A DNA stretch of 64,000 nt, taken from Candidatus Moraniibacteriota bacterium. Lineage in GTDB: Bacteria; Patescibacteriota; Minisyncoccia; Moranbacterales; GWC2-37-73. Positions 26,616 through 61,604 of the stretch are shown in pieces. The stretch lies in contig JAAXUC010000001.1 of NCBI GenBank assembly GCA_013336225.1, positions 99,949 through 163,948 on the forward strand, in the 5' to 3' direction. The translations under genes were made by a program, and so were the position numbers. Below the pieces are notes generated by a model. The model saw nothing but the letters and a program-made list of their open reading frames with translations. It was not told where the DNA came from and searched no databases. Within the stretch, counting starts at the first letter, position 1, and each line of letters opens with the position of its first letter.

Positions 26616-26685
26616 ATGATTAATAATATGAAAGTGTTTTATTTTGATCATGTTTAATATGCGGTTCTGGGAATAGAAGAAAACC

Positions 26686-26800
26686 GTTTTTGTTTCACCT
26701 GTTTTCTCTCGAGAGCACATTCGCAGCCGAAATTCATGGATGCTCACTCGGACCCCACTGTCGTTCGCTACGGCTTCAAGAGAAAACAGGCTCACAAAAA
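26686..26800 (+). repeat. About 115-nt palindromic element, copy 1 of 4 (conserved core GAGAGCAC..GCAGCCGAAATyyATGGCTGC..CTCACTCGGACC..CGCTACGGCTTCAAGA inside a 24-27 bp outer stem)
   Basis: Near-identical cores at 26686-26800, 52597-52715, 54410-54527 (reverse orientation) and 59271-59388; the outer arms are inverted repeats that differ between copies but stay complementary. Confidence 0.7.
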
Positions 26801-26947
26801 CTATATGTCGAGTATGATCTTATTGGTTGATAAAAATCGGAATGTGTTATATCGTGGATGGAAAGTAATATGATAGTTTGACGTAGTAACTTAAGTACCT
26901 CAAAAGGGGAAGCTTTTTGCGTTTATGAATAAATAATTGAAATTTTT

Positions 26948-29848
26948 ATGGAAAATAATAGGATAATCATCAAAGGTGCGCGAGAGCACAATTTGAAAAA
27001 TATTGATCTAGAGTTGCCCCGAGACAAATTTATTGTCTTTACGGGTCTTTCAGGCTCTGGAAAATCAACTTTGGCGTTTGATACGATTTTTGCCGAAGGG
27101 CAAAGGAGATATTTGGAAAGTTTGTCGAGTTATGCGCGGCAGTTTTTGGGGCAAATGGACAAGCCTGATGTTGACTATATTGAAGGACTTTCACCAGCCA
27201 TTTCGATTGACCAAAAATCAACTTCGCACAATCCGCGCTCAACAGTTGGAACAGTGACGGAGGTGCATGATTATTTGCGACTGCTGTATGCGAAAATTGG
27301 AATTCCTCATTGCAGTGTTTGCAATCGTGAAATTTCCAAGCTTTCCACGGATGAAATTGTGGATAGGATTTTGGAGATGGGAGAAAAAAACAAATCGCAA
27401 GCAATTGAGATTTCTTCGCCGATTGTCAGGGAAAGAAAAGGGGAATATTTAGCACTGCTGGATGAAATGTGGAAGAAGGGATTTTCTGAGGCGCTGGTGA
27501 ATGGAAAACTTATTCGCCTGGAAGATTTTAAGGAAATAAAATTGGAGCGTTACAAAAAGCATAGTATCGATATTATTGTTGATAAAATTGAGGTTAATGA
27601 AGAAAATCTTTCTAGAATTTTTGAAGGAGTGGAGAAAGCGCTGCGACTTTCAAAGGGGATTGTGAAAGTGAAATGCGTGCAAGAAGCTAAGGGTCAAAAG
27701 CTAAAAGCTAAAAGCTCAGACTCATTTGAGGTTGAGCAGATTTTCAATCAGAATTTGTCATGTCCGATTCATGATGTGGAATTTCCTGAAATGGAGCCGC
27801 GACTTTTTTCTTTCAATTCTCCCTATGGCGCTTGCGAAGCTTGTGAAGGCTTGGGGCTTAAAAAGGAAATTGATCCTTTGCGCGTGATGCCAGACTTAAA
27901 CAAAACCATTGGCGAGGGAGGTATCATGCCATGGAGCTTCAAACCGAACAATTATCAAGGCACAGTGCTGAAAGCGGTGGCCGCATATTATAATATTCAA
28001 GACAACAAGCGCCTGCGAGATCTGTCGAAAGATAAGCTGGATATTTTGATGTATGGCACAGAGGATGAGGATTTAATCAAGGTTTCATATCATTTCAAAA
28101 GCGGTAGTGGGCATTATAATGTGCGCTGGAAAGGCGTGGTGGCATGGCTACAGGAAAGATATCGCACCACAACTTCAGATGCTGTGCGCACGGATATTGA
28201 AAAATATATGTCGCAAAAACCTTGCTCTGCTTGCAAAGGTAGTCGCTATAAGAGTGATGTGCTTTTGGTGAGCGTGGGCGAAAAGAATATCTATGAAATT
28301 TCGACGCTGAGTATTTGGCAAGGCATTGATTTTTTCAAGAATTTGAAATTGACACATCGCGAGGATTTGATTGCGGGCAGGATTTTAAAGGAAATCATTG
28401 CGCGCATGGTTTTTTTGAACAATGTTGGTTTGGATTATCTGACTTTGGGCAGAGCAGCTTATTCTCTTTCAGGCGGAGAATCGCAACGCATTCGCTTGGC
28501 TTCGCAAATCGGATCGCAATTGGTGGGCGTGCTGTATATCTTAGATGAACCATCCATTGGACTTCATGCGCGTGATAATGCCAAACTCATTGAAACCCTT
28601 AAGCATCTGCAAAAGATCGGGAACACTTTGATCGTGATCGAGCATGATGAAGAGATGATGCGCGCTGCTGATTGGTTGGTGGATATTGGACCAGGAGCAG
28701 GCAAACATGGCGGCGAAGTGGTGGCTGAAGGCTGTCCTGAGGATGTGATCAATAACCCAAAATCGCTGACTGGAAAATATTTGCGTCATGAACTGGAAAT
28801 TGAGGTTCCAAATTTTCGTAGGCAAATAAAAAGAAAAAGAAGCATCACAGTGCGTGGAGCCAGTGAACATAATCTTAAAAATGTGACAGTGGAATTTCCA
28901 CTAAAAGTTTTCACCTGCGTGACTGGAGTTTCTGGCTCTGGAAAATCAACTTTGGTTGAAGAAACTTTGTATAAAGCGTTGGCCAATAAGTTGCATCGCG
29001 CCCTGGATGTGCCAGCCAGGCATAATGAAATTATCGGCATTGAAAATATCAACAAGGTGATCATGATCGATCAATCTCCAATTGGTCGCACGCCGCGCAG
29101 CAATCCTGCAACATACACAGGATTATTCACGCACATCCGAGAACTTTTTGCGCAAACCAAAGATGCCAAAATGCGCGGCTATGGGCCAGGCAGATTTTCA
29201 TTCAATGTGGCAGGTGGGCGCTGTGACAACTGCAGTGGTGAGGGATATCTTAAAATTGAAATGCAATTCATGCCTGATGTGTATTTGCCATGCGATGTTT
29301 GCAAAAGCAAACGTTACAACAGTGAGACACTGCAAGTTAAATATAAAGGAAAAAATATTTCACAGGTATTGGCCATGACAGTTTCAGAAGGAGTTGAATT
29401 TTTTGGAGCATTTTCCAAGATTCATGAACCGCTGAAAGTCTTGGAAGAAGTTGGCCTTGGCTATATTGAGTTGGGACAAAGTGCCACCACTCTTTCTGGC
29501 GGCGAAGCGCAGCGCATCAAGCTCGCCTCTGAGCTTTCAAGGCGCGCCACTGGTGACACTTTATACATCTTGGATGAACCAACCACTGGACTTCATTTTG
29601 ATGACATTAAAAAATTGTTGGTAGTGCTTAATCGCTTGGTTGATGCTGGAAACACAGTGGTGGTGATTGAGCATAATATGGATGTGATAAAAACAGCTGA
29701 TTGGATTATTGATATGGGGCCAGAAGGTGGCGACGGTGGCGGAAAAGTTGTGGTGACTGGCCCACCAGAGGAAATCATTAAATATTATAAAGAAAGTCAC
29801 ACGGCTAAATATTTGCGACAAGTTTTGAAACCGAAAAGCCTAACTTAA
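26948..29848 (+). CDS. uvrA: Excinuclease ABC subunit A
   Basis: 966 aa; two ABC ATPase modules (GLSGSGKST twice, LSGGE signature twice) and Zn-finger Cys pairs; contains an in-frame AAGCTAAAAGCT repeat (27688-27715). Confidence 0.95.
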
Positions 29849-32379: not shown

Positions 32380-35172
32380 ATGGCTTCAAAAAAAATAGCA
32401 TCATCCAATAACAATGAAATCGTAATCAAGGGTGCGCGCGTGAACAATCTTAAGAATATTGATGTGAACATCCCGCGAGATAAATTCGTGGTGATCACTG
32501 GACTTTCAGGCTCAGGAAAATCTTCTTTGGCATTCGATACTATTTACGCGGAAGGCAATCGTCGCTATATGGAGGGACTTTCTTCATACGCTCGCAACTT
32601 TTTGGATCCATCAGTGAAGCCTGACGTGGACAAAATTGAAAATCTTTCGCCGCCAATTTCAATTGATCAAAAAAGTATTTCACGTTCGCCGCGCTCAACG
32701 GTGGGAACATTAACGGAAGTTTATGACTATTTGCGCATCATGTATGCAAAAGTCGGAATTTTGCATTGTCCTGAGTGTGGGACTTCCATGCAAAAAAGAA
32801 GCAATCAAGAAATCTTGGATGAAATTTTGACTTTTTCTCATCACACTCAAATTGCAATCTTGGCAAAGCCGAAAGAAGCTGCGGTTGGCAAGGAGCTTTT
32901 AAAGCACATTGCACAAATGGGATATGCCCGCGTGCGTTTCAATGGAAAAATGTTCACCGTGGCAGAAGCCATGATGCTTGAAGAAAATGAAATTGAAACT
33001 GATGTTGAGATGGTTATTGACCGAGTTATTTTGGACAAGAAAAAACCTGATACAGAAAGAATGTTGGATAGTGTGGAAACTGCCATGAAAATCGGTGGAA
33101 ATTCAATGAAAATTTTGTTCGACAATGTGGAAGAGCGCGGATATAATCAGGATTTCTTTTGCAGTGAGTGTGGAGTGAAAATAAAAGAGGTGACGCCAAG
33201 ACACTTTTCTTTTAATAGTCCTGAAGGAGCATGTGATACTTGCGCTGGTTTGGGTTACACCTTGAAAGTAAATGAGGAATTGATCATCCCTAATAAAAAT
33301 CTCTCTTTAATGGAGGGTGCCATTCAACCCTGGAGCAAATCTGGCGGAAAAATAAACGGGCAAAGTGCCGCGCTTTTGACTTTGAAAAATGTGGCCAAGA
33401 AATATAAATTTTCCATGAATGTACCAGTAAAGAAATTCACTGCGGTGCAACTGGGAATTGTTTTGTATGGCAATGAGGGATTTGAAGGTGTGATTCCTGC
33501 TCTTGAGAAAAAATATCAAGAAACGAAATCTGATTATGTGCGCAGTGAAATTGAAAAATATATGACCGCGCATACTTGTCCGACTTGCGATGGCAAGCGT
33601 CTCAAAAAAGAATTCTTGGCAGTAGAAGTTCAGGGAAAAACAATTGACATGATGGTTTCAATGAGCGTCACGCATTTGCGAGAACTGTTTGAAGATGCTG
33701 AAAATTGGACACAAACTCAGCAAGAAAAAAGCATTGCCAAATCAATTGTGCGAGAAATTTTGCAACGCTTGGGTGCACTGGAAAATGTTGGTTTGGAATA
33801 TTTGAATTTGGGTCGCTCTGCTCAGACAATTTCTGGAGGAGAAGCGCAGCGCATTCGCTTGGCTGCACAACTCAATTCTCAATTGATGGGAATTGTCTAT
33901 GTTTTGGATGAGCCATCAATCGGGCTTCATAGTAGAGATACGGAAAAACTTATCAACACGATTAAGGCCCTGCAGGGCGTTGGAAATTCACTAATTGTGG
34001 TTGAGCATGATGAAAGCATCATCAGAGCTGCTGATTGGATTGTGGATATGGGTCCTGGTGCTGGAGAAGAAGGTGGAATTGTGGTTTTTGAAGGTGACTA
34101 CAAAAAATTAATGAAGTCTAAAAATCTTACCGCTCAGTATATTTCAAAAAAGAAAAAAGTTTCTGACAAGAAAAAAAATCGCACTGGCAGTGGAAAATTT
34201 ATTGAAATTATTGGAGCTGAAGAAAACAACTTGAAAAAAATCGACGTTTCAATTCCATTGGATAAATTTGTGGTTATTTGTGGTGTTTCAGGCAGTGGGA
34301 AATCAACATTAGTAAAGAATATTTTAGCTAAAGCACTATCTCGGCATTTTTATAATACCAAGGATTTGCCAGGCAAGCACACTAAAATCAAAGGATTTGA
34401 ACATGTTAAAAAAGTCATCAGCATCAATCAAAATCCAATCGGACGCACGCCGCGCTCAAATGCTGCAACATATACTGGAGTGTTTTCTCATATTCGCGAC
34501 TTGTTTGCCGGAGTGGAAGAAGCTAAGAATAGGAACTATACTGCCAGCCGCTTCAGTTTCAATATGAAAGGCGGACGCTGCGAAGTTTGTCAGGGAGAAG
34601 GATCAAAAAAAATTGAAATGCATTTGTTGCCTGACATGTATGTGAAATGCGAAGCTTGTGACGGAACCAGGTTTGGCAAGAAAACTTTAGAGATTGAATA
34701 TAAAGGATTTAATGTGGCACAGATTCTGGATATGGATGTGCGTTTGGCACTACGCTTTTTTGCTCGTCACCCACTCATTGCTGAAAAACTTAAGACCATG
34801 GAGGATGTGGGCTTGGGTTATCTCAAGCTTGGACAAAGTGCAACTAATCTTTCTGGTGGAGAGGCGCAGCGCATCAAACTGGCCACCGAGCTTGCACGCA
34901 AATCAACTGGAAACACTTTATATATTCTGGATGAACCAACGGCGGGGCTGCACTTTGATGATATCCGAAAATTGCTTTTAGTTTTAAATGCATTGGTTGA
35001 CAAGGGAAACACGGTGATTGTGGTTGAACACAATCTGGATGTGATTCGCGACGCTGATCATGTCATTGAGCTTGGGCCAGATGGCGGTGAGCTTGGAGGA
35101 CATCTGACTTTCGCTGGCACACCAGACCAATTGAAGAAGGATAAGAAGAGTTGGACGGCAAAATACCTCTAA
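32380..35172 (+). CDS. Second full-length UvrA paralog
   Basis: 930 aa with the same domain order as uvrA at 26948 (GLSGSGKSS, two LSGGE signatures, Zn-finger cysteines), but clearly diverged sequence. Confidence 0.9.
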
Positions 35173-37007: not shown

Positions 37008-37754
37008 ATGAAATCAACAAAAGTTTCCGCTCAAGGCGGATCCGCCTTGAGCGGAAAAGAAAAAATAAAAAAAATCACATATTGGGCGGGTGTTTCCGCA
37101 ATTGGAATTGTGGTGGGCTTTTCACTGCAATTCACCAAGGCCTGGACTGAACCAACTGCTCCTGCACCAGGTGGAAATGTGGGCGCACCGATAACCACAG
37201 GCCTTCTTGATCAAGTTAAGAATGGCGGCTTGGCAGTTTCCAATGGAATCGTGACTTCATTTTTAGGTGTGAATGGAAACGTCACATTTTCTGGGGTTGG
37301 AAATGGGATGGTGTTTCCAGATGGAACAAAGCAGACAACTGCTGCAGCAGCACAAGCTGGTGACAATTTGGGGAATCACACTGCAACTGCACCTCTTAAT
37401 ATGAACGGAAAATCAATCAATGGTGTTGATGTTGTTAGTGCTACAACTTTGAATGCAACTCAAATGACAATTAATTACAACGGTAAAATTTTGGCTTCAC
37501 AATTAGTCAATATTAATGGGAGTGAGGATGTTTATAGCACATCGGTGGAAATGAGCTGGGCACTTGGCAATACCACTTCTGATACTTGTAATGGAGATTT
37601 TACTACTAATTACGGATGTGCACTTTCTGATAATAAGACATGTATTGACACAAGCACAACGTATGTTCTTGTGAAAGGAGAGCCTTCTCCTAGATATTGG
37701 AGAAGAAACATTACTTGTAAGGTTGCAACGGCTCTTAATTTTGTTCAGCAATAA
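37008..37754 (+). CDS. Secreted/surface protein, paralog family A (conserved N-terminal anchor and C-terminal Cys-rich module, variable middle)
   Basis: Shares WAGVSAIGIVVGFSLQFTKAWTEPT...GNVGAPI...VSNGIVTS...FPDGTKQTTAA and the C-terminal TCNGD...C...TC pattern with the 40084 gene. Confidence 0.5.
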   Translation: MKSTKVSAQGGSALSGKEKIKKITYWAGVSAIGIVVGFSLQFTKAWTEPTAPAPGGNVGAPITTGLLDQVKNGGLAVSNGIVTSFLGVNGNVTFSGVGNGMVFPDGTKQTTAAAAQAGDNLGNHTATAPLNMNGKSINGVDVVSATTLNATQMTINYNGKILASQLVNINGSEDVYSTSVEMSWALGNTTSDTCNGDFTTNYGCALSDNKTCIDTSTTYVLVKGEPSPRYWRRNITCKVATALNFVQQ

Positions 37755-40001: not shown

Positions 40002-40083
40002 TTTTTTGTACAACTATGAAAAATGTTGTAAAATATTAGTAAGAATATTTCTCAGTTAAAAACTTGGTAATAAATAATAAATA

Positions 40084-40671
40084 ATGAATCTTAAATCAAC
40101 CAACATGAAAACAAAACTAAAGGAAGCAATCTATTGGGTGGGGGTTTCCGCAATTGGAATCGTAATCGGCTTCTCACTGCAATTCACCAAAGCTTGGTCT
40201 GAGCCAACAACTTCTGCTCCAAATGGAAACGTGGGCGCACCAATTAACACCAGCATCATTGATCAAGTCAAAAGCGGAGGAATGGTGGTATCTAATGGAA
40301 TTGTAACTTCAGTTCTCGGAGCCACCAAGATAACGGCTGGCACTGGAGGAGTCGCTTTTCCAGACGGAACAGTTCAAACCACTGCTTCTGCCCCAAGTCT
40401 TGGTGTATGTAATAAATCATACGTAAATGGATCGGAGGATAAATATTCCTCATGGATCGGTGTACGTTTCTGGGCACCTACTTTTACATGGACAGGGACG
40501 CGTTTGGATACTTGCAATGGTGATGTTGGCAATGCATACACCTGTAGTTTGACGGAGACGCGAACATGCAATGATGTCCAAGGATTCACTTATTACAAAG
40601 ATTATTGGAGGAGTTATAATTATCGGACTGTTACATGCGTGAAGCAATATGTTTGCAGTTACACAGAGTGA
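40084..40671 (+). CDS. Secreted/surface protein, paralog family A (second copy)
   Basis: IYWVGVSAIGIVIGFSLQFTKAWSEPT...GNVGAPI...VSNGIVTS...FPDGTVQTTAS and C-terminal DTCNGD..YTC..TRTC..C..C. Confidence 0.5.
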   Translation: MNLKSTNMKTKLKEAIYWVGVSAIGIVIGFSLQFTKAWSEPTTSAPNGNVGAPINTSIIDQVKSGGMVVSNGIVTSVLGATKITAGTGGVAFPDGTVQTTASAPSLGVCNKSYVNGSEDKYSSWIGVRFWAPTFTWTGTRLDTCNGDVGNAYTCSLTETRTCNDVQGFTYYKDYWRSYNYRTVTCVKQYVCSYTE

Positions 40672-41401: not shown

Positions 41402-41486
41402 ATGGATAAAAATATTGTAAAATATTGGTAAGAATATTTCTCAGTTAAAAATTTAGAAATAAATAATAAATTTTCAATCAACCAAT

Positions 41487-42560: not shown

Positions 42561-42617
42561 AAAATCCCGCGAAAGCGGGATTTTCTATTGCCCAAAAGCA
42601 TTTTATGTGGGTATAAT
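42561..42617 (+). promoter_or_regulatory. Terminator hairpin followed by the argS promoter (TTGCCC-17-TATAAT), with the -10 box only 6 nt from the ATG (leaderless-type)
   Basis: AAAATCCCGCGAAAGCGGGATTTTC hairpin; TTGCCC aaaagcattttatgtgg GTATAAT gaagat ATG. Confidence 0.45.
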
Positions 42618-42623
42618 GAAGAT

Positions 42624-44288
42624 ATGAAAGAATCAATTCAAAAACTTATATCCAAAGCTGTTTTAGCGGCAAAAAAGGCTCATTCTTGGGCTGATTTTGA
42701 GATGCCAGAAATAACAGTGGATTATCCCAAGAGTGAACAATTTGGCGATTATACGACCAACATTGCCCTTATTTTGGCTAAAAAAGCTGGGAAAAGCCCG
42801 ATGGAAACGGCAAATTATCTCAAAGAGATTATTTGTCATCCTGAACTTGTTTCAGGATCCCGCAAGGTTACTAATGGCGAGCAAAGCACAGAGATCCTGA
42901 AACAAGTTCAGGATGACATGGCGGGGATTTTTGAAAAAATTGAAGTGGCGGCGCCGGGATATTTGAATTTCCATCTTTCCCAGCAATATTTGCAAGATTT
43001 GACGAAAAAAATCAATATTGAAAAAAACAGTTTTGGAAATTCGCAGATTGGAAAAGATGTTAAAATCAATAATGAATTTATTTCCGCCAATCCGACTGGG
43101 CCGCTGCATCTTGGAAATGGTCGCGGTGGATTTTATGGCGACTCACTTACGAGGGTTTTTAGAAAAGCTGGATTTGAAGTTACTAATGAATATTATGTGA
43201 ATGATGCTGGCGGACAAGTTGAAAAACTTGGACACAGTGTGCTTAAAGATGAGGAAGCTGCCTACATAGGAGAATATATCGATGACTTGAATGTGAAATA
43301 TGCAGAGCTTGGCGATGTGCGAAAAGTTGGTCAACTGGCGGCCAAGGAAGTTTTGGAAAATATCATCAAGAAAACTGCCAAGGAAAAAATGCAGATTGTT
43401 TTTGACGTGTGGATGAGCGAACAAAAATTGAGCGATGATGGATATGATCAGCGTGCAATTGAAATGCTCAAAGAAAAAAAAATGACCTATGAATCAGAAG
43501 GAGCACTGTGGCTGCGAACAACTGATTTTGGCGATGATAAAGACAGGGTGCTGATCAAGAAAGACGGTAAAAATGCCTATATGGCTGGCGATTGTGGATA
43601 TATGCTGAATAAGATTGAAAGAGGCTATTCTCGCTTGGTGATGGGGCTGGGAGCTGATCATCACGGTTATGTTTCGCGGCTGAAGGCAGTGGCTTTGGCG
43701 CTTGGTTTTGCAGGAGATTTTCGAATCATCATTTCTCAGATGGTGCGGTTGGTGAAAGATGGAAAGGAAGCTCGCATGAGCAAACGCGCTGGCAACGTAA
43801 TTAATTTGGATGATCTGATTGATGAGATTGGGCATGATGTGACTAGATTTTTCTTCTTGATGTATTCTCCGGACACGCACATGAATTTTGATTTAGGATT
43901 GGCAAAAGAACGCAGCGCCAAGAATCCAGTTTTCTATGTGCAATATGCGCATGCACGCATTTGCAGTATCCTGGAAAAAGCTGAGCATGGAACAGAAAAT
44001 GCAAAACTCGAATTATTGGTTCATGAAAAAGAATTGAGCTTAATCAGGGAGCTCAACAAATTTCCAGAATTGATTGAAACAATTGCTGAAAATTATGAAG
44101 TGCATAAACTGCCACAATATGCCATGAAATTGGCTGACAAATTCCATTCTTTTTATGATGCTTGTCGGGTGATTGACGAAGAAAATCCGCAGCTGACAAA
44201 TGCTAGACTTTTCTTGATAAATGCTGTTAGAATAGTGCTAGCTGAGACCCTGGGCCTTATTGGGGTGGATGCGCCAGAAAAAATGTAA
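42624..44288 (+). CDS. argS: Arginyl-tRNA synthetase
   Basis: N-terminal Arg_tRNA_synt_N domain, a HIGH-like region (ANPTGPLHLGNGRGG), a KMSKS-like block (RMSKRAG), and the anticodon-binding DALR domain. Carries an in-frame 83-bp palindromic insertion at 42835-42917. Confidence 0.9.
   Translation: MKESIQKLISKAVLAAKKAHSWADFEMPEITVDYPKSEQFGDYTTNIALILAKKAGKSPMETANYLKEIICHPELVSGSRKVTNGEQSTEILKQVQDDMAGIFEKIEVAAPGYLNFHLSQQYLQDLTKKINIEKNSFGNSQIGKDVKINNEFISANPTGPLHLGNGRGGFYGDSLTRVFRKAGFEVTNEYYVNDAGGQVEKLGHSVLKDEEAAYIGEYIDDLNVKYAELGDVRKVGQLAAKEVLENIIKKTAKEKMQIVFDVWMSEQKLSDDGYDQRAIEMLKEKKMTYESEGALWLRTTDFGDDKDRVLIKKDGKNAYMAGDCGYMLNKIERGYSRLVMGLGADHHGYVSRLKAVALALGFAGDFRIIISQMVRLVKDGKEARMSKRAGNVINLDDLIDEIGHDVTRFFFLMYSPDTHMNFDLGLAKERSAKNPVFYVQYAHARICSILEKAEHGTENAKLELLVHEKELSLIRELNKFPELIETIAENYEVHKLPQYAMKLADKFHSFYDACRVIDEENPQLTNARLFLINAVRIVLAETLGLIGVDAPEKM
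42835..42917 (+). mobile_element. 83-bp miniature palindromic element with perfect 25-bp terminal inverted repeats, inserted in-frame in argS
   Basis: GTCATCCTGAACTTGTTTCAGGATC at 42835-42859 and its exact reverse complement at 42893-42917 flank a 33-bp spacer. Each arm is itself a hairpin (CCTGAA-cttgt-TTCAGG). It corresponds to an extra roughly 28 aa relative to canonical ArgS. Confidence 0.75.
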
Positions 44289-45623: not shown

Positions 45624-45691
45624 GAATAAGATAGGAATATAAAAGCATTGAAGGAGTCATCACTCCTGAGCTGCGAAAAGAAACGACTGCT

Positions 45692-45747
45692 GTCGTCCTG
45701 AACTTGTTTCAGGATCTACGTAGATTCCGGATCAAGTCCGGAATGAC
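45692..45747. repeat. 56-bp near-perfect palindrome related to the argS element (left arm GTCGTCCTGAACTTGTTTCAGGATC, centre TACGTA, right arm GATTCCGGATCAAGTCCGGAATGAC)
   Basis: Left arm differs from the argS copy at 1 position. The right arm carries several substitutions that preserve the hairpin (CCGGA-tcaag-TCCGG). Confidence 0.6.
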
Positions 45748-45874
45748 ATGCAATCAGAGTAGAATTCGTCGGGTAAGCCCGTTATAGCCAAAAAACAAGG
45801 GTAGAATGTATAATGTAGAATGTATGACGTATGAAAATACATAATACATAATACTAAATACATGATACTGAAGC

Positions 45875-45888
45875 AAGGTGGTACCACG
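45875..45888 (+). promoter_or_regulatory. T-box-like conserved sequence AAGGTGGTACCACG about 60 nt upstream of ileS (candidate T-box leader)
   Basis: 12 of 14 matches to the T-box consensus AGGGUGGNACCGCG; the UGGU would pair with the ACCA end of a tRNA with discriminator A (tRNA-Ile). Confidence 0.25.
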
Positions 45889-49255: not shown

Positions 49256-49298
49256 AAAACTCAGCCGTTGCATTGCATATGCAGCGGCTTTTTATTAT

Positions 49299-49421
49299 CG
49301 AACGTAGTGAGCGAAATGATTTGTCAGCAGACAAAATCATTTCCGTCCGCCAGCTGGCGGAGAGTGATGATAACAAATTGGTTTAATACCTTGCGGCTTG
49401 CCCCGGGGTTAATACCTGTTT
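49299..49421 (+). repeat. About 120-bp repeat element, copy a (13-bp stem hairpin GAAATGATTTGTC-agcag-GACAAAATCATTTC and GGTTTAATACC units), immediately upstream of recO
   Basis: Shares GAGCGAAATGATTTGTCAGCAGACAAaaTCATTTCCG and GGTTTAATACCT with 50272-50400; a diverged reverse-oriented relative lies at 62575-62640. Confidence 0.6.
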
Positions 49422-50170: not shown

Positions 50171-50271
50171 AAAAACTCAAATCCAAAATCTAAATGTCAA
50201 ATAAATTACTTAAATCCAAATGTGTTAATCATCCCATTTGGATTTTTGTTATTAGGATTTTATTATCTAGC

Positions 50272-50400
50272 AAAACGAGCGAAATGATTTGTCAGCAGAC
50301 AATCATTTCCGAGTGAGTGACGATACCAAAAGGTTTAATACCTCGAGGCTTGCCTCGTGAGCCCAAAGGGTCCAGGGCTTGCCCTGGGGTATTAATACCC
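50272..50400 (+). repeat. About 120-bp repeat element, copy b (direct repeat of 49299-49421), upstream of the 50515 gene; includes CTTG-loop hairpins CGAGG-cttg-CCTCG and CCAGGG-cttg-CCCTGG
   Basis: Sequence identity with copy a over the hairpin core; see copy a. Confidence 0.6.
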
Positions 50401-50514
50401 TTTTATTTGACATTTGGTATTGAGATTTTTGATTTTGCTTGTTTTTTGTTTTAACAATACTGCATTTTGTGGTACAATATTATTGAACATAAAAATAATA
50501 TAGAAATAAAATAT

Positions 50515-52444: not shown

Positions 52445-52510
52445 TCGGTCATTAGTCATCCGTCATCAAAAAATTCATCAAGCCTTTGAGGCGCGATGAC
52501 AGATGACGGA
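52445..52510 (+). terminator. Long GTCAT-repeat hairpin after the 50515 gene
   Basis: GTCGGTCATTAGTCATCCGTCATC ... GATGACAGATGACGGATGAC inverted repeat. The GTCAT-repeat family also occurs at 14265-14320 and in-frame in uvrC at 31558-31590. Confidence 0.45.
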
Positions 52511-52596
52511 TGACTTTTAATTATACGAATTAATATATTTATTCATAACAAGTATGGAATCATACGCAATATATGGTTTTGAAAAAGGTAAGTAAT

Positions 52597-52715
52597 GTTT
52601 TTGATTTGCCTATTTCCTCTTGAGAGCACGCTTCGCAGCCGAAATCTATGGCTGCTCACTCGGACCTCGCTGTCGCTCGCTACGGCTTCAAGAGAAAATA
52701 GGCAAATCAAAAACC
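52597..52715 (+). repeat. About 115-nt palindromic element, copy 2 (outer stem sequence differs from copy 1 but remains complementary)
   Basis: GTTTTTGATTTGCCTATTTCCTCTTGA...core...TCAAGAGAAAATAGGCAAATCAAAAAC. Confidence 0.7.
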
Positions 52716-52764
52716 ACATATTGCGCTTGATCCTAAGTATGCTGGACTTAATTGAAATTTGGTT

Positions 52765-52770
52765 TATAAT
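52765..52770 (+). promoter_or_regulatory. TATAAT -10 box 8 nt upstream of the tgt ATG (leaderless-type promoter)
   Basis: GGTTTATAATgggacgatATG. Confidence 0.4.
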
Positions 52771-52778
52771 GGGACGAT

Positions 52779-53897
52779 ATGTTTACATTGATTTCACAGC
52801 AACAAAAGAAGCGCATTGGATTGCTTAAAACTAAAAACGGTGTAATTAATACGCCGTTTTTCATGCCGATTGCAACTAAGGGCGCGGTAAAAAATGTTTC
52901 TCCTGAAGATTTGCTGGCTTTGGGCGCGGAAATTGTGCTGGGAAACACTTATCATCTTTGGCTCAGGCCAGGAGATGATCTTATTGCGCGGGCAGGTGGA
53001 CTCCATAAATTCATGCATTGGAGTGGACCAATTTTGACTGATTCTGGTGGTTATCAAGTTTTTTCACTTGGCGCGCGAGCCAAAGAAAAATATGGGACCA
53101 ATGGCGTCAAACTTAGTGAGCAAGGAGTTGATTTTGCTGATCCCTTAAATGGCAGCCGACATTTCATGTCGCCGGAAAAATCAATTGACATTCAACTTAA
53201 TCTTGGTTCTGACATGATCATGGTGCTGGATGAATGTCCGCCATATCCATGCTCACACAGTGCTGCCAAAAAATCACTGGAACTCACCACGCGTTGGGCT
53301 GCTCGCTGCCTGACTTATTTTCAAGAAAAAACCAAGCATCTTTCCAGGGAAAACCGTCCCTTGCTTTTCGCGATTGTGCAGGGAAGTGTCTATGAAGATT
53401 TGCGAAAAGAATCAGCCAAGCAATTGACTGCCATGGATTTCGATGGTTTTGCAATTGGCGGTGTGGCAGTGGGCGAACCTAGAAAACATCTCTATGAAAT
53501 TTTGCAGTGGGTGGTGCCCTTTTTGCCTGCTGACAAACCGCGCTATTTGATGGGACTTGGAAAACCTGAAGAATTAGTGGCAGCTGTTGAGGCTGGAATG
53601 GATATGTTTGATTGTGTCATTCCCACGAGAGAAGGTAGGCACGGAAGACTTTTTGTTTGGAAAGAGGGGAACAATTTGAGTGGAGATTTTTATGAAACAA
53701 TAAATATCAATAATGAACAATTCAGGGAAGACTTCACACCGATAGACTCAAATTGTGATTGCTATGCTTGCAAAAACTTCACCAAAGCTTATCTCAATCA
53801 TTTGCTCAGAACAAATGAGCCATTCTTTCTGAAGCTTGCTTCAGTGCATAATTTGAATTTCTATCTGAAATTGATGAAATTGCTCGGCGAAAAATGA
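52779..53897 (+). CDS. tgt: Queuine tRNA-ribosyltransferase
   Basis: GVINTPFFMPIATKGAVK, LGNTYHL, DSGGYQ, and Zn site CDCYAC...H. Confidence 0.9.
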   Translation: MFTLISQQQKKRIGLLKTKNGVINTPFFMPIATKGAVKNVSPEDLLALGAEIVLGNTYHLWLRPGDDLIARAGGLHKFMHWSGPILTDSGGYQVFSLGARAKEKYGTNGVKLSEQGVDFADPLNGSRHFMSPEKSIDIQLNLGSDMIMVLDECPPYPCSHSAAKKSLELTTRWAARCLTYFQEKTKHLSRENRPLLFAIVQGSVYEDLRKESAKQLTAMDFDGFAIGGVAVGEPRKHLYEILQWVVPFLPADKPRYLMGLGKPEELVAAVEAGMDMFDCVIPTREGRHGRLFVWKEGNNLSGDFYETININNEQFREDFTPIDSNCDCYACKNFTKAYLNHLLRTNEPFFLKLASVHNLNFYLKLMKLLGEK

Positions 53898-54000
53898 AAG
53901 AAAATCAAATAGCAATACGTATCATATCAATAGGTGCGTAAAATTATAAAAAGCGGAAATTTTTTAGGCTCAGGCCTATTGCATATTTCTAACAAATGAC

Positions 54001-54321
54001 ATGGCAAAAAAAGAAAAAAAAGTCATAAAACAATCAACTGAAGCTGGTAAGCAGTTTTTGGAAGTGAGCAAGTTTTTCAAGATTGTGGCTGATGAAAATC
54101 GCTTGAAGATCTTGGTTTTATTGGAAGGCAGCAGCATGAATGTCACCGACATTCATAGTAAATTGAAGCTTCCGCAAAATCTGACTTCACATCACATTTC
54201 TAAGTTGAAAACTTTGGATCTTCTGCTGGAAAAACGCGAAGGGACTTTCAGGAATTACAGCGTTAATACTAAGAAGCTCAAGGAATACAATAAAATGTGT
54301 AAAGAGCTGTTTAAGATCTAG
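54001..54321 (+). CDS. ArsR/SmtB-family transcriptional regulator
   Basis: ENRLKILVLL...MNVTDIHSKLKLPQNLTSHHISKLKTLDLL wHTH. Confidence 0.7.
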   Translation: MAKKEKKVIKQSTEAGKQFLEVSKFFKIVADENRLKILVLLEGSSMNVTDIHSKLKLPQNLTSHHISKLKTLDLLLEKREGTFRNYSVNTKKLKEYNKMCKELFKI

Positions 54322-54347
54322 TATTTTTAGTTGCAATTGCATTTGAA

Positions 54348-54379
54348 AAAGCCCAGCGCAAGCTGCGGCTTTTTTTGAT
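54348..54379 (+). terminator. Terminator after the ArsR-like gene
   Basis: AAAAAGCCCAGCGCAAGCTGCGGCTTTTTTTG. Confidence 0.6.
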
Positions 54380-54409
54380 TATGTATAATACTGGATCATG
54401 TGCAATATT

Positions 54410-54527
54410 TTTTTTGTTTCACCTGTTTTTTCTTGAAGCCGTAGCGAACGACAGTGAGGTCCGAGTGAGCAGCCATGAATTTCGGCTGCGAAACGTGCTC
54501 TCAAGAGAAAACAGGTGAAACAAAAAA
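54410..54527 (-). repeat. About 115-nt palindromic element, copy 3 (reverse orientation)
   Basis: Reverse complement matches the copy 1/2 core (GAGAGCACGTTTCGCAGCCGAAATTCATGGCTGCTCACTCGGACCTCACTGTCGTTCGCTACGGCTTCAAGA). Confidence 0.7.
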
Positions 54528-54777
54528 ATCCTTCTTTTGCTCCTGGAATATTATATTGCGAGTGACCCACAATACCTGGTTCTTCTGATTTACTCATCTC
54601 CTTTTTTGGCACATTTTTGACTGAAAATCATAGTCAAAAAACTTACTCGCTCTCGCTGCGTAGGTCCTAAAAAGAAAATAAGCAAATCAGAAGGCATCAA
54701 TCTTGCTTTAAGTGTATTTGCAAAAAAAGCTTATTTTAGGTATTATTGATTCATAAGTCTTATGGATATTACATCTT

Positions 54778-57709: not shown

Positions 57710-59092
57710 CTACCCACGGATGATGGCCAGCAGCTCATCTCGTTTTTCCTCCATCAATTTATTATTTTTTGCTTCTACATTTAGTCGTATGAGTGGTTCA
57801 GTGTTTGAGCCTCGCACATTGAATCTCCAATTGTTCAAGTCATTAGTAGTGTCGATAAAATCAAGAGAGACGCCATCTTGCAGATCGCTTTTGGATGACT
57901 GTGCGATGTATTTGAATCTTATTTTCTCAATGACTGCTGAAACGTCAGCAACTTCATTATTGATTTCTCCACTGACATGATAAGTGTCCCAAAACATTTC
58001 CTGAATGATTTGAGAAAAAGGTTTTTCCTGCTTGGAAAGGAATTCCAAGATCATCACAAGTGGTATCATGCCACAATCACAGAAAAAATAATCACGGAAA
58101 TAATAATGCGCACTCATTTCACCTCCAAAAACAGCATTCTCTTGGCGCATACGCTCCTTGATGAAAGCGTGTCCTGCTTTGGTTGGCACATTGGTTCCTC
58201 CATTTTGACTGGCGATATCTTCAATTGCCCAGGTTAGGCGAGTGTCATGCAGAATTTTTTCGCCGTTTTTTCTGTCCAGAAAAATCTTGGCCAGCAGCGC
58301 TGTGATGAAATAACCCTCAATGAATTCCCCCTTTTCGGTGAAGAAGAAGCAGCGATCAGCATCGGCATCCCAAGCAACTCCAAAATCAGCGCCTGTTTCC
58401 ACCACTAGTTTGGAAATTTCTTCCCGATTGGTCGGGATGAGCGGATCTGGTCTGCCCTTGGGAAAATTTCCATCCGGTTCGTAATTTATTTTTACTATAT
58501 CAAGCTTGGTTCCTTCGAGAATTTTTGTCAGGGCGCGTCCACCGACTCCGAAATTGGGATTGGCCACGATTTTGAATTTTTTGAATTTGGAAAAGTCCGC
58601 AAAGGATTGAATTTTTTCGGCGTAATCGTTGAGGATATCTTTTTTCTCAACCAAGCTTTCATTGATTTCGCCATCCAGCACAACCGGATCGACGTCCAAG
58701 GCGAACGCCATATCGCGGATGTCGTAGATTCCGGTGTCGCCGGAAATCGGCTTGGACTGTTCACGCACGATCTTCATGCCATTGTATTCTCCTGGATTGT
58801 GTGAGGCAGTCAAGGTTATTCCTCCAGCATAACCATAATTGGCCACAGAGAAATATAACATGTCAGTTGAAATTTCTCCCACATCAATGACTCTGATTCC
58901 CTGATCGGTGATGGCCTTGATGGCTGCTTTTTTCAGGGCAGGTGAGGAAAGGCGAACGTCGCAGCCGACAACCAATTCTGTCGGTTTGAGAAATTGGCAC
59001 AAGGAAGTGGCAATCTTGTAGACATCAAGCTCATTGATCTCGGTGGGATAAATTCCGCGGATGTCATAAGCTTTGAAAATATTTTTATTCAT
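57710..59092 (-). CDS. Phosphomannomutase/phosphoglucomutase (alpha-D-phosphohexomutase)
   Basis: Active-site TASHNPGEYNGMKI and metal-binding DADADR. Confidence 0.8.
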   Translation of the reverse strand: MNKNIFKAYDIRGIYPTEINELDVYKIATSLCQFLKPTELVVGCDVRLSSPALKKAAIKAITDQGIRVIDVGEISTDMLYFSVANYGYAGGITLTASHNPGEYNGMKIVREQSKPISGDTGIYDIRDMAFALDVDPVVLDGEINESLVEKKDILNDYAEKIQSFADFSKFKKFKIVANPNFGVGGRALTKILEGTKLDIVKINYEPDGNFPKGRPDPLIPTNREEISKLVVETGADFGVAWDADADRCFFFTEKGEFIEGYFITALLAKIFLDRKNGEKILHDTRLTWAIEDIASQNGGTNVPTKAGHAFIKERMRQENAVFGGEMSAHYYFRDYFFCDCGMIPLVMILEFLSKQEKPFSQIIQEMFWDTYHVSGEINNEVADVSAVIEKIRFKYIAQSSKSDLQDGVSLDFIDTTNDLNNWRFNVRGSNTEPLIRLNVEAKNNKLMEEKRDELLAIIRG

Positions 59093-59270
59093 ATAGTCTT
59101 CTTTTAATTCTAAAGTCTAATTCTTAAGGTCTAAAACAAGTCTAAATTCTAATTTATAATTTTACACTTTAGATTTTTAAAGTTAGTCTTTAGATTTATG
59201 GTTTTTATTGGCAAATAAGATACTTGTGTATTATAACCTTTTTTGTTTTTTGCCTCAAGCGCAATGTGCG

Positions 59271-59388
59271 ATTTTTGTTTCACCTGCTTTCTCTTGAGAG
59301 CACGCTTCACAGCTGAAATCTATGGCTGTTCGCTCGGACCTCGCTGTCGCTCGCTACGGCTTCAAGAAAAAACAGGCGAAACAAAAAT
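59271..59388 (+). repeat. About 115-nt palindromic element, copy 4 (carries a compensatory double change in the internal hairpin: GCAGCC/GGCTGC to ACAGCT/GGCTGT)
   Basis: ATTTTTGTTTCACCTGCTTTCTCTTGAGAGCACGCTTCACAGCTGAAATCTATGGCTGTTCGCTCGGACC...CGCTACGGCTTCAAGAAAAAACAGGCGAAACAAAAATG. Confidence 0.7.
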
Positions 59389-59399
59389 GCTTCTTTCTT

Positions 59400-61604
59400 T
59401 TATTCAAGATGGATGTTAGCTTGAAATTTTCCAAGTTCTTTTTGCAGGAGAGGAAAGTTGCCAAGGTCGGGACTATCAAGCAAGGTTTGCTCGGCGTAGT
59501 CATGGGCAATTTCAATCAATTTTGCATTTGCCAGGTGCTCCATGGCGATGTCTGGCAACCCTGATTGCCTGGTGCCCAGGAATTCTCCTGGTCCTCGTAG
59601 TGCAAGATCTTCTTCAGCAATCTTGAAACCGTTGGAAGTTTTTTCCATCGCCCCCAGGCGCGATTTAGCTTTGGTGGTTTTGCTGCCAGTGAACAAGAAG
59701 CAATAGGATTGCTTGTCGGAGCGACCGACGCGCCCACGAAATTGATGTAATTGCGAAAGACCGAAACGTTCAGCATCTTCAATGATGATAATGGTGGCAT
59801 TGGGAATGTCGATGCCAACTTCCACCACTGAGGTTGCAACCAAAATGTCATATTTTTTATCTTTGAAATCCTGCATCACTTTTTCCTTTTCGGTCGATTT
59901 CAAACGACCATGCAAAAGTCCAAGACTGAGTTTTGGGAAAATCTCACGGGACAAATGTTCATGTTCTTGGGTTGCAGCTTTGAGTTCAGTGAGTTTTTCT
60001 GATTCTTCTACTAGCGGAAAAATGATGAAAGCCTGATGACCACTGGCGATTTCTTTTTCAACAAAATCATAAATTTCTTTGCGTTTGCTGTGAGTGATGA
60101 TTTCAGTGACGATGGACTTTCTGTTTTTTGGCATTTCATCCAGTACAGACAAATCAAGATTTCCAAAATATGCCAAGGTCAAAGTGCGGGGAATGGGAGT
60201 GGCTGTCATGGTCAAGAAATGAGGAATTTTACCTGGCAGTCCGTCATTGATTTTGGAAATTTGCTGCTGCAAATATGCGCGTTGAGCGACGCCAAAACGA
60301 TGTTGTTCATCCACAATCACCAACGCCAAATTTTTGAATTTAACAGCCTCTTGAATGATGGCATGGGTGCCGATAATTATATCAATATTGCCATTGCGCA
60401 GTTCAGCTATTAATTGTTCTTTAGACAACTTATTATTTTTTATGGATTGTAATTTTGAATTTTTAATTTCTAATTTCGATTGAATTTTTAATGTTTTAAT
60501 TTTTAAACATTCATCATTCTGATTTGACTCAAAATTCAAAATTGGAAATTCAAAATTATTAATAAGCTTGTATGCATTTGTCAGCAGTCCAATGTTTATG
60601 TCATATGAGGCGAATATCTTGCAGATACTCTCATAATGCTGGCGAGCCAAAACTTCTGTGGGAGCCATGATCGACACTTGAAATCCAGCTTTGATGGCAT
60701 TCAGGCTTGCGATGGCAGCCACGATTGTTTTGCCGCTGCCCACATCTCCATTTAAAAGGCGATTCATTGGCAGTGGCTTTTCCAGATCTTTCAAGATTTG
60801 AAAAGCAGCTTTGCGCTGAGCATCGGTCAGGGTGAAGGGGAGATCGGAAACAAATTTTTTGATGAGTTCTTCATTAAAGTGCATGGAGACAGCATTTTGT
60901 TTGTCCCAAGAGATTTTCACTTTTTGAGTTGCGAGTTGCACTAAAAATATTTGCTGGAAAGCAAAACGTTTTTGAGCCAGTTCAAATTCTTGCAGTGTTT
61001 TGGGAAAATGCAAGGATTTCACTGCTTCAGACAGCTTGGGCAGATGCAGGCCTTTGAGAATGTTTTCAGGCAGTGGATCAATCAGTGCGTCGGCATATTT
61101 GATCAGGTTCTGCATTTGCCAGCGAATCCATTTGGAAGTGAGACCTTCGGTTTCGGGATAGATTGGCACCAGGCGCCCAGTGTTGGTGGGAGTGCGCGAA
61201 GAAAGTTCCCAAGCTGGACTTCCAAAAAAAAGACCATTTCGATCCTCGGAAACTTTGCCAGAGAGACGCACGCCCTTGCTGACAGTCAGTGAGTCGCTAA
61301 TATATGGCTGATTGAACCACACGGCGCGCACAGTGCCAGTTTCATCGCTGACAAAACATTCCGTGATCATCATTTTCTTTTTCCAAGTGCGCACCATTTT
61401 GCTTTGAGAAATTTCGCCCATCACGGTTGCTGCTTCTCCTGCTTGTAAATCAGCAATTTCAATCCTTTCGGAATAATCTTCATAGCGAAAAGGGAAGTGC
61501 AGCAAAAAATCCTCCACCGTTTCCAGGTTGAGTTTTTTCAAAATTGGCGCATATCTAAGGCCGATGCGCGGAATTTTTTCCAGCTTTATTTTCAAATAAT
61601 CCAT
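59400..61604 (-). CDS. recG: ATP-dependent DNA helicase RecG (with about 45-aa insertion encoded by an AT-rich GAAATT-type repeat)
   Basis: Wedge/OB N-terminus, helicase motifs GDVGSGKT and DEQHRFGV, TRG motif region. Insertion INNFEFPILNFESNQ...LEIKNSKLQSIKNN at DNA 60420-60560 matches the intergenic repeat family at 3230-3353 and 35175-35300. Confidence 0.9.
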   Translation of the reverse strand: MDYLKIKLEKIPRIGLRYAPILKKLNLETVEDFLLHFPFRYEDYSERIEIADLQAGEAATVMGEISQSKMVRTWKKKMMITECFVSDETGTVRAVWFNQPYISDSLTVSKGVRLSGKVSEDRNGLFFGSPAWELSSRTPTNTGRLVPIYPETEGLTSKWIRWQMQNLIKYADALIDPLPENILKGLHLPKLSEAVKSLHFPKTLQEFELAQKRFAFQQIFLVQLATQKVKISWDKQNAVSMHFNEELIKKFVSDLPFTLTDAQRKAAFQILKDLEKPLPMNRLLNGDVGSGKTIVAAIASLNAIKAGFQVSIMAPTEVLARQHYESICKIFASYDINIGLLTNAYKLINNFEFPILNFESNQNDECLKIKTLKIQSKLEIKNSKLQSIKNNKLSKEQLIAELRNGNIDIIIGTHAIIQEAVKFKNLALVIVDEQHRFGVAQRAYLQQQISKINDGLPGKIPHFLTMTATPIPRTLTLAYFGNLDLSVLDEMPKNRKSIVTEIITHSKRKEIYDFVEKEIASGHQAFIIFPLVEESEKLTELKAATQEHEHLSREIFPKLSLGLLHGRLKSTEKEKVMQDFKDKKYDILVATSVVEVGIDIPNATIIIIEDAERFGLSQLHQFRGRVGRSDKQSYCFLFTGSKTTKAKSRLGAMEKTSNGFKIAEEDLALRGPGEFLGTRQSGLPDIAMEHLANAKLIEIAHDYAEQTLLDSPDLGNFPLLQKELGKFQANIHLE

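Follow-up and report, generated by a model that had tools for sequence, protein, structure and literature searches.

An imperfect palindrome of 118 nt, here called c4, lies at positions 59271-59388 of the 64,000-nt stretch of DNA analyzed in this work (the window), which comes from an uncultured groundwater bacterium of the Candidatus Moranbacteria (Parcubacteria, Candidate Phyla Radiation, or CPR). It sits between pmm, a phosphomannomutase-type gene (57710-59092, minus strand) whose start side faces it, and recG (59400-61604, minus strand), whose stop codon faces it. These gene coordinates bear out the placement, between a phosphohexomutase gene and recG, that had been given by an earlier reading made from the letters of the DNA alone (the sequence-only reading). 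This report concerns the family of repeats to which c4 belongs, its internal fold, and its likely origin.

An inverted-repeat search delimits the two arms of the outer stem of c4, P1, at 59271-59297 and 59362-59388 (ATTTTTGTTTCACCTGCTTTCTCTTGA and TCAAGAAAAAACAGGCGAAACAAAAAT; 27 nt each, 89% complementary, spaced 64 nt). The arms enclose a non-palindromic, more G+C-rich center carrying two smaller hairpins, P2 (59309-59329, ACAGCT-GAAATCTAT-GGCTGT) and P3 (59343-59350, GC-TGTC-GC, with GACA as the loop on the complementary strand). The element plus strand of c4 is the plus strand of the window, and a covariance model of the family scores it at 137.8 bits. Adjoining the left arm, with no spacer, is a terminal-repeat-like sequence (GCCTCAAGCGCAATGTGCGA, 59252-59270) that is similar to the right terminal repeat of another copy, c2, read in reverse complement; the recG side has no counterpart. 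Because this repeat is present on the left only and the core ends just 11 nt from the stop codon of recG, c4 is a truncated unit. We considered that the missing end might overlap or supply the C-terminus of recG, and rejected this. The recG tail is native, since the recG of L187, a related contig without an element at this place, ends identically (...TTATTCAAGATG). A promoter-like site on the minus strand (TTGAGG-17-TATAAT, 59230-59258) faces pmm, and its first hexamer is the end of the c4 terminal repeat, so that the insertion of c4 may have created a hybrid promoter.

Copies in the window and the complete unit

The window holds five copies (c1 to c5) of this roughly 116-nt imperfect palindrome, all of them intergenic, and the 24-nt arm pattern matches five times in the window compared with none expected, far more than chance would give. 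The close copies score 112-144 bits with the covariance model and share 82-89% sequence identity. This confirms the repeat family of about 115 nt described in the sequence-only reading and extends its list by a fifth, diverged copy. The copies have housekeeping genes as neighbors (uvrA, tgt, an arsR-family regulator, trpS, pmm, and recG).

In wider-flank alignments, c1, c2, and c3 share sequence beyond the palindrome as well, in the form of another inverted repeat. The complete unit is 172-198 bp long, with terminal inverted repeats of about 20 bp (GATCATACGCAATATATGG), and is laid out as a terminal repeat, a 20-35-nt spacer, the core of about 116 nt, a spacer of 0-38 nt, and the second terminal repeat. 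The left outer repeat reads GATCATACGCAATATATGG(TTYT), with about 20 nt of purine-rich spacer after it, and the right one, abutting the core, is CCATATATTGCGYWTGATC. The spacers between the terminal repeats and the core are not complementary.

The full c1 unit lies on the plus strand at 26646-26819 (174 bp; core 26686-26801; terminal repeats GATCATGTTTAATATGCGG and CTATATGTCGAGTATGATC). The c2 unit, also on the plus strand, spans 52557-52733 (core 52597-52714), or 52549-52741 with its flanking duplications; it is preceded by a separate terminator-like hairpin, that of the upstream gene, and lies directly upstream of a promoter-like site of tgt (TGGACT-16-TATAAT, 52743-52770), which begins directly after the c2 duplication. 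The c3 unit is inverted, on the minus strand at 54393-54568 (core 54409-54528; 54385-54576 with duplications). The diverged core of c5, detected as an inverted repeat and then with the covariance model, occupies 54582-54693 on the plus strand and has 28-nt arms; its P2 is TTTTTGACT-GAAAATCAT-AGTCAAAAA, its P3 is GC-TCTC-GC, and its score of 45.7 bits rose to 107 bits after inclusion in the model. Its left terminal repeat is split by c3 into GATTATGT (54377-54384), ATAATACT, and TGGTT (54577-54581), and a tentative right terminal repeat lies at 54710-54721.

Related units are present in other genomes. The best matches to the Tgt protein of the window come from uncultured Candidatus Moranbacteria, at up to 88% identity, and about 1.3 Mb of tgt neighborhoods on Moranbacteria contigs, given here as L-numbered loci, was searched for members (the Tgt proteins of L016 and L017 are 88% identical to that of the window). 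The outer repeats GATCATACGCAATATATGG and CCATATATTGCGTATGATC bracket c1, c2, and c3 in the window, as well as units in L022 (9625-9822), L102 (15517-15688), and L187 (about 2690-2925). The L021 contig ends within an element, with one outer repeat visible at the cut end, as expected if the repeat breaks assemblies.

No conserved coding capacity was found in the unit, as frames that are open differ between copies and hold stop codons in others. A small protein encoded by the element was rejected on the same grounds, different frames being open in different copies. Open reading frames overlapping the elements had no exact match in the protein collection, nor did the RecG of the window, and a protein search with the concatenated six-frame translation of six copies returned no match, low-complexity words having probably crowded the candidates. 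The possibility that the core is a smaller independent element nested in the outer one is unsupported, as no direct repeats flank the core. Separately, c2 and c3, inverted relative to each other, bracket tgt and arsR (52598-54528) in the manner of a composite transposon. This is probably a coincidence, because tgt and arsR occupy the same place in relatives without elements.

A three-way junction conserved by compensated changes

Folded as a single strand, the core forms a three-way junction of the stem P1 (25-27 bp) and the hairpins P2 (loop of 9-12 nt) and P3 (loop of 4 nt, or 6 nt in one member). On the element plus strand the order is P1 5′ arm, (G)GCAC, P2, ..CTC.., P3, GGCY, and P1 3′ arm. 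A covariance model built from six copies, R2, was searched over the tgt neighborhoods and identified members in L102 (66.7 bits), L187 (63.2 bits), L021 (3993-4114, 35.5 bits, between a T-box terminator and the ileS start), L099 (30.1 bits), and L018 (23 bits, very diverged). The fold is kept in 10 members from six genomes despite largely different stem sequences. Six clearly distinct P2 stems and seven P3 stems are found, nearly all of them fully complementary. The P2 stems are GCAGCC/GGCTGC, ACAGCT/GGCTGT, TTTTTGACT/AGTCAAAAA, GTCCTTGACC/GGTCAAGGAC, TTGGCT/AGCTAA, CTTTTGGAT/ATCCAAAAG, and CTTTTGGAAA/TTTTCAAAAG, with loops of GARATYYAT or resembling AAATACTYA. Those of P3 include GC/GC, AC/GT, AATTAC/GTAATT, TTGATTGC/GCAATCAA, GATAC/GTATC, and AGAAAC/GTTTCT, and its short loop has a C-G closing pair in every member.

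In an alignment of six sequences, 19 of 38 pairs are changed on both sides and 92% of cells are paired. Slid controls, which keep the relatedness of the sequences, give about 50% paired cells and 2-4 pairs changed on both sides. With nine sequences, 20 of 34 pairs are changed on both sides, including 7 of 7 in P2, and 87.8% of cells are paired; the paired fraction falls to 47-57% when partners are slid, and 0 of 500 column shuffles reach the observed values. In both alignments the paired percentages are flattered because the structure was partly derived from the same sequences (the both-side counts are less affected). The sequences are related by descent and the counts are hence not probabilities, yet the gap to the slid controls is large. 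The MAFFT alignment places the outer P1 columns of the newer members off by one. The predicted folds are very stable (z of -4 to -8.6). The fold is conserved through many compensated changes across six genomes. The paired evolution seen in c4 by the sequence-only reading is thus real, and much stronger than c4 alone shows.

In c4 itself, P2 departs from the GCAGCC-...-GGCTGC of c2 and c3 just as had been read from the letters. The outer pair has switched from G-C to A-T, a compensated change, and the loop-closing C-G has become T.G on the plus strand, which is an A.C mismatch on the minus strand and hence a wobble on the plus strand only. The three mismatches of the outer stem (A/C, C/A, and C/A on the plus strand) are therefore G.U pairs on the minus strand, again as read. 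The copy is a mosaic, with a core nearest that of c2 (60/64) and arms nearest those of c3 (25/27 each). It carries five private substitutions, every one at a predicted paired position: two make up the compensated P2 pair, one converts a junction-helix U.G to C-G and one a P1 U-A to U.G (both on the complementary strand), and the last breaks the P2 loop-closing pair on the complementary strand and gives T.G on the plus strand. Either strand retains pairing at four of the five. We infer that these are ordinary within-family drift under a pairing constraint.

The folding z-scores of c4 are -4.1 for the plus strand and -7.4 for the minus strand. The earlier statement that c4 leaves the strand of the fold unresolved holds for c4 alone, but the family-wide evidence leans toward the strand complementary to the element plus strand. 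On that strand, P1 contains 19 G.U cells and 0 A.C cells, and a U.G pair falls on one or the other of two neighboring columns in 8 of 9 members. In three genomes (L022, L102, and L187) the same two wobble positions are found, with CCTATTTCC on the left and GAAAACAGG on the right, despite P2 and P3 stems that are entirely different. The C-G-closed P3 loops read on the complementary strand as GACA (five members), GAGA (two), GGGA, GAAA, and GAAATA, all of G..A or GNRA type. Folding energy is also lower on this strand in 10/10 members, by 0.9-16 kcal/mol. This evidence is silent on whether the molecule is RNA or DNA, because single-stranded DNA, too, forms stable G.T pairs and G..A loops.

Mobility and competing explanations

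Covariation alone does not establish an RNA gene here, because the 115-nt core belongs to a larger unit with the marks of insertion. Direct repeats of 8 bp lie directly outside the outer repeats in four of five full-length copies. The two repeats agree at 7/8 positions for c2 (CAAGTATG, 52549-52556, and TAAGTATG, 52734-52741), L022 (GACATATG and GGCATATG), and L102 (TGATTGTT and TGATTATT), and at 6/8 for c3 (ATAATACT, 54385-54392, and ACAATACC, 54569-54576; tabulated as GGTATTGT and AGTATTAT), and have decayed to 4/8 at c1. The duplicated targets are AT-rich. For two 8-mers 190 nt apart in the window, the background probability of at least 7/8 matches is about 0.001 and of at least 6/8 is 0.007; three flanks at 7/8 and one at 6/8 are not chance, even allowing some freedom in placing the ends. 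The c3 unit is, moreover, nested in the left terminal repeat of the c5 unit. When c3 and one duplication are removed, GATTATGTATAATACTTGGTTCT comes to abut c5, and it is identical to the left repeat of c1 at 18 of 23 positions.

Orthologous slots without the element point the same way. The order of a DUF7619-family gene followed by tgt is kept in all Moranbacteria loci fetched, with an element-free spacer of 44-130 nt in L016, L017, L018, L019, L021, and L027; only the window and L022 have an element there, and their spacers measure 350 nt and about 450 nt, respectively. Between pmm and recG the spacer is 131 nt in L187, where it is element-free, and 307 nt in the window. The terminal repeat resembles the ends of IS6-family elements (GGTTCTGTTGCAAAGT, with an 8-bp duplication).

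MITEs, or miniature inverted-repeat transposable elements, are non-coding, shorter than 500 bp, and have terminal inverted repeats of about 4-30 bp with direct repeats that fade with age (PMC10969869, section 2.1). MITEs also occur in multiple dispersed copies at AT-rich intergenic sites whose occupancy differs between related genomes, take their transposase from an autonomous insertion sequence with matching terminal repeats, and give transcripts with stable stem-loops. The units described here are below 500 bp and non-coding, have terminal inverted repeats and flanking direct repeats, and occur as dispersed copies with presence/absence differences. We call them MITE-like because of their terminal inverted repeats, target-site duplications, small size, and nested insertion, and c4 is probably a truncated member of such a non-coding, MITE-like transposable-element family of Candidatus Moranbacteria that carries a structured core.

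We hypothesize that the units are moved in trans by a transposase making 8-bp staggered cuts, as suggested by the target duplication, the terminal repeats, the nested insertion, and the empty orthologous slots. Only copies whose transcript or single-stranded form keeps the fold would persist, and the strand that matters would most likely be the one complementary to the element plus strand. At c3 and c4 that strand is sense for the flanking genes. For c4 these are recG and pmm, which would place the element in the 3′ untranslated region of recG. A 27-bp RNA duplex there could act as an RNase III-type signal for processing or stability, by analogy with the Correia, ERIC, and bcr1 repeats discussed below.

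Several observations weigh against this explanation. The sample is small, with 10 members from six genomes that are related by descent. No transposase or autonomous element with these ends was found in the window (Pfam and NCBIfam) or in the roughly 1.3 Mb of related loci, there is no clear target duplication at c1 or L187, and c4 keeps only one terminal repeat. The slot between the DUF7619-family gene and tgt carries an element in the window and likewise in L022, a more distant relative, and related but clearly different elements occupy the folD-leuS spacer of L018, L099, and L021; such shared slots could mean long vertical retention rather than recent mobility. The family thus joins insertion signatures with long persistence or with repeated use of the same intergenic slots. 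A role at the RNA level is made less likely by the terminator scan, which gave no terminator-like site at any copy, and by the lack of a convincing promoter inside the unit. A self-contained promoter in the terminal repeats was considered and is unsupported, as only weak -10-like strings occur there. As to the strand, three P2 transitions away from Watson-Crick pairing (in c4, L102, and L021a) wobble only on the element plus strand, and the favored strand runs antisense to its neighboring genes at 10 of the 12 copies (roughly 7 of 9 when independent sites are counted). The plus-strand wobbles in P2 are three scattered events, whereas the P1 wobble pattern is recurrent.

The covariation could instead reflect a free-standing structured small-RNA gene or cis-regulatory RNA, present in paralogous copies and transcribed from the complementary strand, in which case the inverted repeats on either side would be there incidentally or would belong to a longer closing stem. 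Such an RNA would fit the strong covariation in three helices, the semi-conserved loops (GARATYYAT and the C-G-closed G..A tetraloops), the U.G pairs at fixed positions, the better folding of one strand in all 10 members, and the retention of elements in the same slot in different genomes. We nevertheless consider it unlikely, given that the 8-bp flanking repeats and the nested insertion show insertion of a block, the spacers outside the core do not pair, no promoter-like or terminator-like site is associated with the copies, and orientation to the neighboring genes varies, with one copy lying opposite in the ileS 5′ leader. Rfam offers no match either, even at E<=10: with Rfam 15 at gathering thresholds the window gives two tRNAs only and no family at any copy, and at E<=10 only sub-threshold matches to miRNA precursors and the Phe leader appear at c2, c3, and c5, as generic long hairpins give. 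A related proposal, which we regard as improbable, accepts the transposon and holds that it has spread the core as a new functional RNA in these ultra-small CPR bacteria, rather than as a merely tolerated hairpin; the core could be a trans-acting RNA, a self-processing RNA, or an RNA partner of the transposase. The features that speak for it are the invariant GUGC junction motif, the P3 capped by C-(G..A)-G, the fixed U.G in P1, and the semi-conserved 9-nt loop of P2.

Template switching at quasi-palindromes during replication could copy one arm onto the other at the DNA level, giving apparent compensatory changes in selfish or junk palindromic DNA with no RNA function and no selection. The related element of L018 has perfect 23-nt arms and its orthologous neighbor in L099 imperfect ones, and the mosaic makeup of c4 shows that copies exchange sequence. 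However, such copying yields perfect complements rather than wobbles that fall 19:0 on one strand, and L022, L102, and L187 keep these wobbles in the same two columns even as P2 and P3 have been completely rewritten. It also leaves the conserved unpaired motifs (GCAC and the loops) and the G..A-type loops unexplained, and we judge it quite unlikely. That c4 is the transcription terminator of recG, with the similar copies being convergent terminators, is highly unlikely. It begins 11 nt past the recG stop codon and its recG-sense strand folds at -58 kcal/mol, but no T-run follows the stem on either strand. The element stems have T5 at the 5′ end and A5 at the 3′ end, the reverse of the layout of an intrinsic terminator. 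The terminator scan is negative at every copy, c2 already sits downstream of the upstream gene's own terminator-like hairpin, and the copies are homologous rather than convergent because they share 82-89% identity and terminal repeats.

Two known classes of repeat were also rejected. REP and REPIN sequences, which are palindromes of 20-40 nt with a conserved GTAG head, mostly found as inverted pairs, lacking target duplications, and mobilized by a RAYT gene of the genome, do not fit a unit of about 175 bp with outer terminal repeats, 8-bp duplications, and no conserved 5′ GTAG. Integron attC sites, which have R''/L''...L'/R' boxes and stand in cassette arrays close to intI, do not fit ends of GTTTTTG/CAAAAAC in place of GTTRRRY, nor copies scattered among uvrA, tgt, trpS, and recG in a window with no integrase. 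BLAST of the c2 unit against phage and plasmid collections gave no match. When 185,579 species genomes were scanned for exact occurrences of a 20-base core motif, 15 matches came up, all of them by chance in coding sequence of high-GC genomes, and a longer core motif gave zero matches in metagenome and viral contigs. A viral scan with a terminal-repeat motif gave 80 matches, none with an inverted partner or a nearby core and all attributable to chance.

Neighboring repeats and known systems

The window contains other small repeats and signals. A perfect 26-nt inverted repeat (TGTCATCCTGAACTTGTTTCAGGATC, 33 nt, then the reverse complement) lies in frame at 42834-42918 within argS (42588-44288) and lengthens the protein by about 23-27 residues (..PELVSGSRKVTNGEQSTEILKQVQDDM..), which the L099 and L102 orthologues lack; at this spot L018 argS carries a different insertion, similar in size. 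It looks like an in-frame palindromic element in a housekeeping gene, as in the Rickettsia palindromic elements. A related palindrome (TGTCGTCCTGAACTTGTTTCAGGATC...GGATCAAGTCCGGAATGACA) occupies 45691-45748 in the spacer upstream of ileS and is followed by a T-box-like motif (AAGGTGGTACCACG, about 45875-45888), for which Rfam makes no T-box call at gathering score. A second, unrelated repeat family of about 150 nt ("family B") is found at 50171-50436, 49290-49395, and L016 4268-4420. Inverted repeats of 35 nt (50171-50205 and 50402-50436) enclose its full copy, and the L016 copy lies just downstream of arsR, in the same spacer as c3 and c5 of the window.

The tgt start codon lies 6-8 nt past TATAAT, with a conserved TGGACT before it, in the window (52765-52781) and in L017, L018, L021, and L027, which suggests that the tgt mRNA may be leaderless in these Moranbacteria. 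The terminator-like hairpin after the DUF7619-family gene (52446-52516) is made of repeated GTCAT/GTCAC units (GTCATTAGTCATCCGTCATC...GATGACAGATGACGGATGAC), and a similar hairpin is at the same place in L020 (about 9830-9890). AT-rich motifs (TCTAAA.. and ATGATTC/ATAATTC) recur upstream of pmm and tgt in different genomes (window 59100-59200, L187 16110-16160, L022 9880-9950). Two UvrA-like genes (26948-29848 and 32380-35172) lie 2.5 kb apart and show about 72% DNA identity over the reported stretches, and gene-sized direct repeats (37056-37267 with 40108-40319, and 40019-40090 with 41408-41479) suggest further local paralogues.

CPR genomes are roughly 1 Mb and are usually thought to be poor in mobile DNA, and a limited literature search turned up no MITE-type repeats in CPR bacteria. 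The Moranbacteria genomes nevertheless carry several small repeat families that break assemblies, adjoin promoters, and nest in one another. The family described here shows with unusual clarity a mobile repeat keeping its internal fold by covariation across genomes. Strand-specific groundwater transcriptomes could test whether selection acts on RNA or on single-stranded DNA, and on which strand. For annotation, the case is a warning that a repeated hairpin is not shown to be an RNA gene by covariation alone.

Among known repeats, QMITE2 of Coxiella burnetii is the nearest in layout and bcr1 of Bacillus the nearest in behavior. In QMITE2 the direct repeats measure 7-9 bp and the terminal repeats 23-29 bp, the core is 113-145 bp long, and the fold predicted for the transcript is very stable (PMC10969869). 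Its host belongs to another phylum, and its sequence is presumably dissimilar, as the searches of Rfam and of the BLAST collections with the Moranbacteria element gave no match. We know of no report of cross-species covariation for QMITE2.

Correia elements of Neisseria duplicate TA, and their inverted arms are the transposon ends (see also PMC3184786). The elements (CREE or NEMIS) have a core of about 104-157 bp with 26-bp inverted arms and are intergenic in either orientation, and their long duplex is cut by RNase III when co-transcribed (PMC10969869); this cleavage is the mechanism we propose by analogy for P1 of the Moranbacteria element. There, in contrast, the 27-bp arms are internal, the true ends are the outer repeats, and the duplication is 8 bp. 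No integration host factor (IHF) site or promoter was identified in the Moranbacteria element.

Selection on RNA pairing was reportedly proposed for ERIC repeats by Wilson and Sharp in 2006. ERIC, or IRU, of the Enterobacteriaceae is an intergenic imperfect palindrome of about 127 bp that is co-transcribed and affects mRNA decay (PMC3184786). Both ERIC and Correia repeats are processed by RNases, ERIC by RNase E (PMC3184786, PMC10969869). Compared with the Moranbacteria element, ERIC has TA-flanked ends, a single palindrome without an outer pair of repeats, and an unrelated sequence.

In the Bacillus cereus group, bcr1 is a MITE-like, non-coding element of about 155 bp with direct-repeat flanks and a strain-variable distribution, in which compensatory base-pair changes keep a cruciform-like structure at the RNA level (PMC3184786). 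Its direct repeats are 5 bp long, as opposed to 8 bp here, and its sequence and host phylum are unrelated. Relative to bcr1, the Moranbacteria element, known here from DNA alone, places a three-way junction inside a separate pair of terminal repeats.

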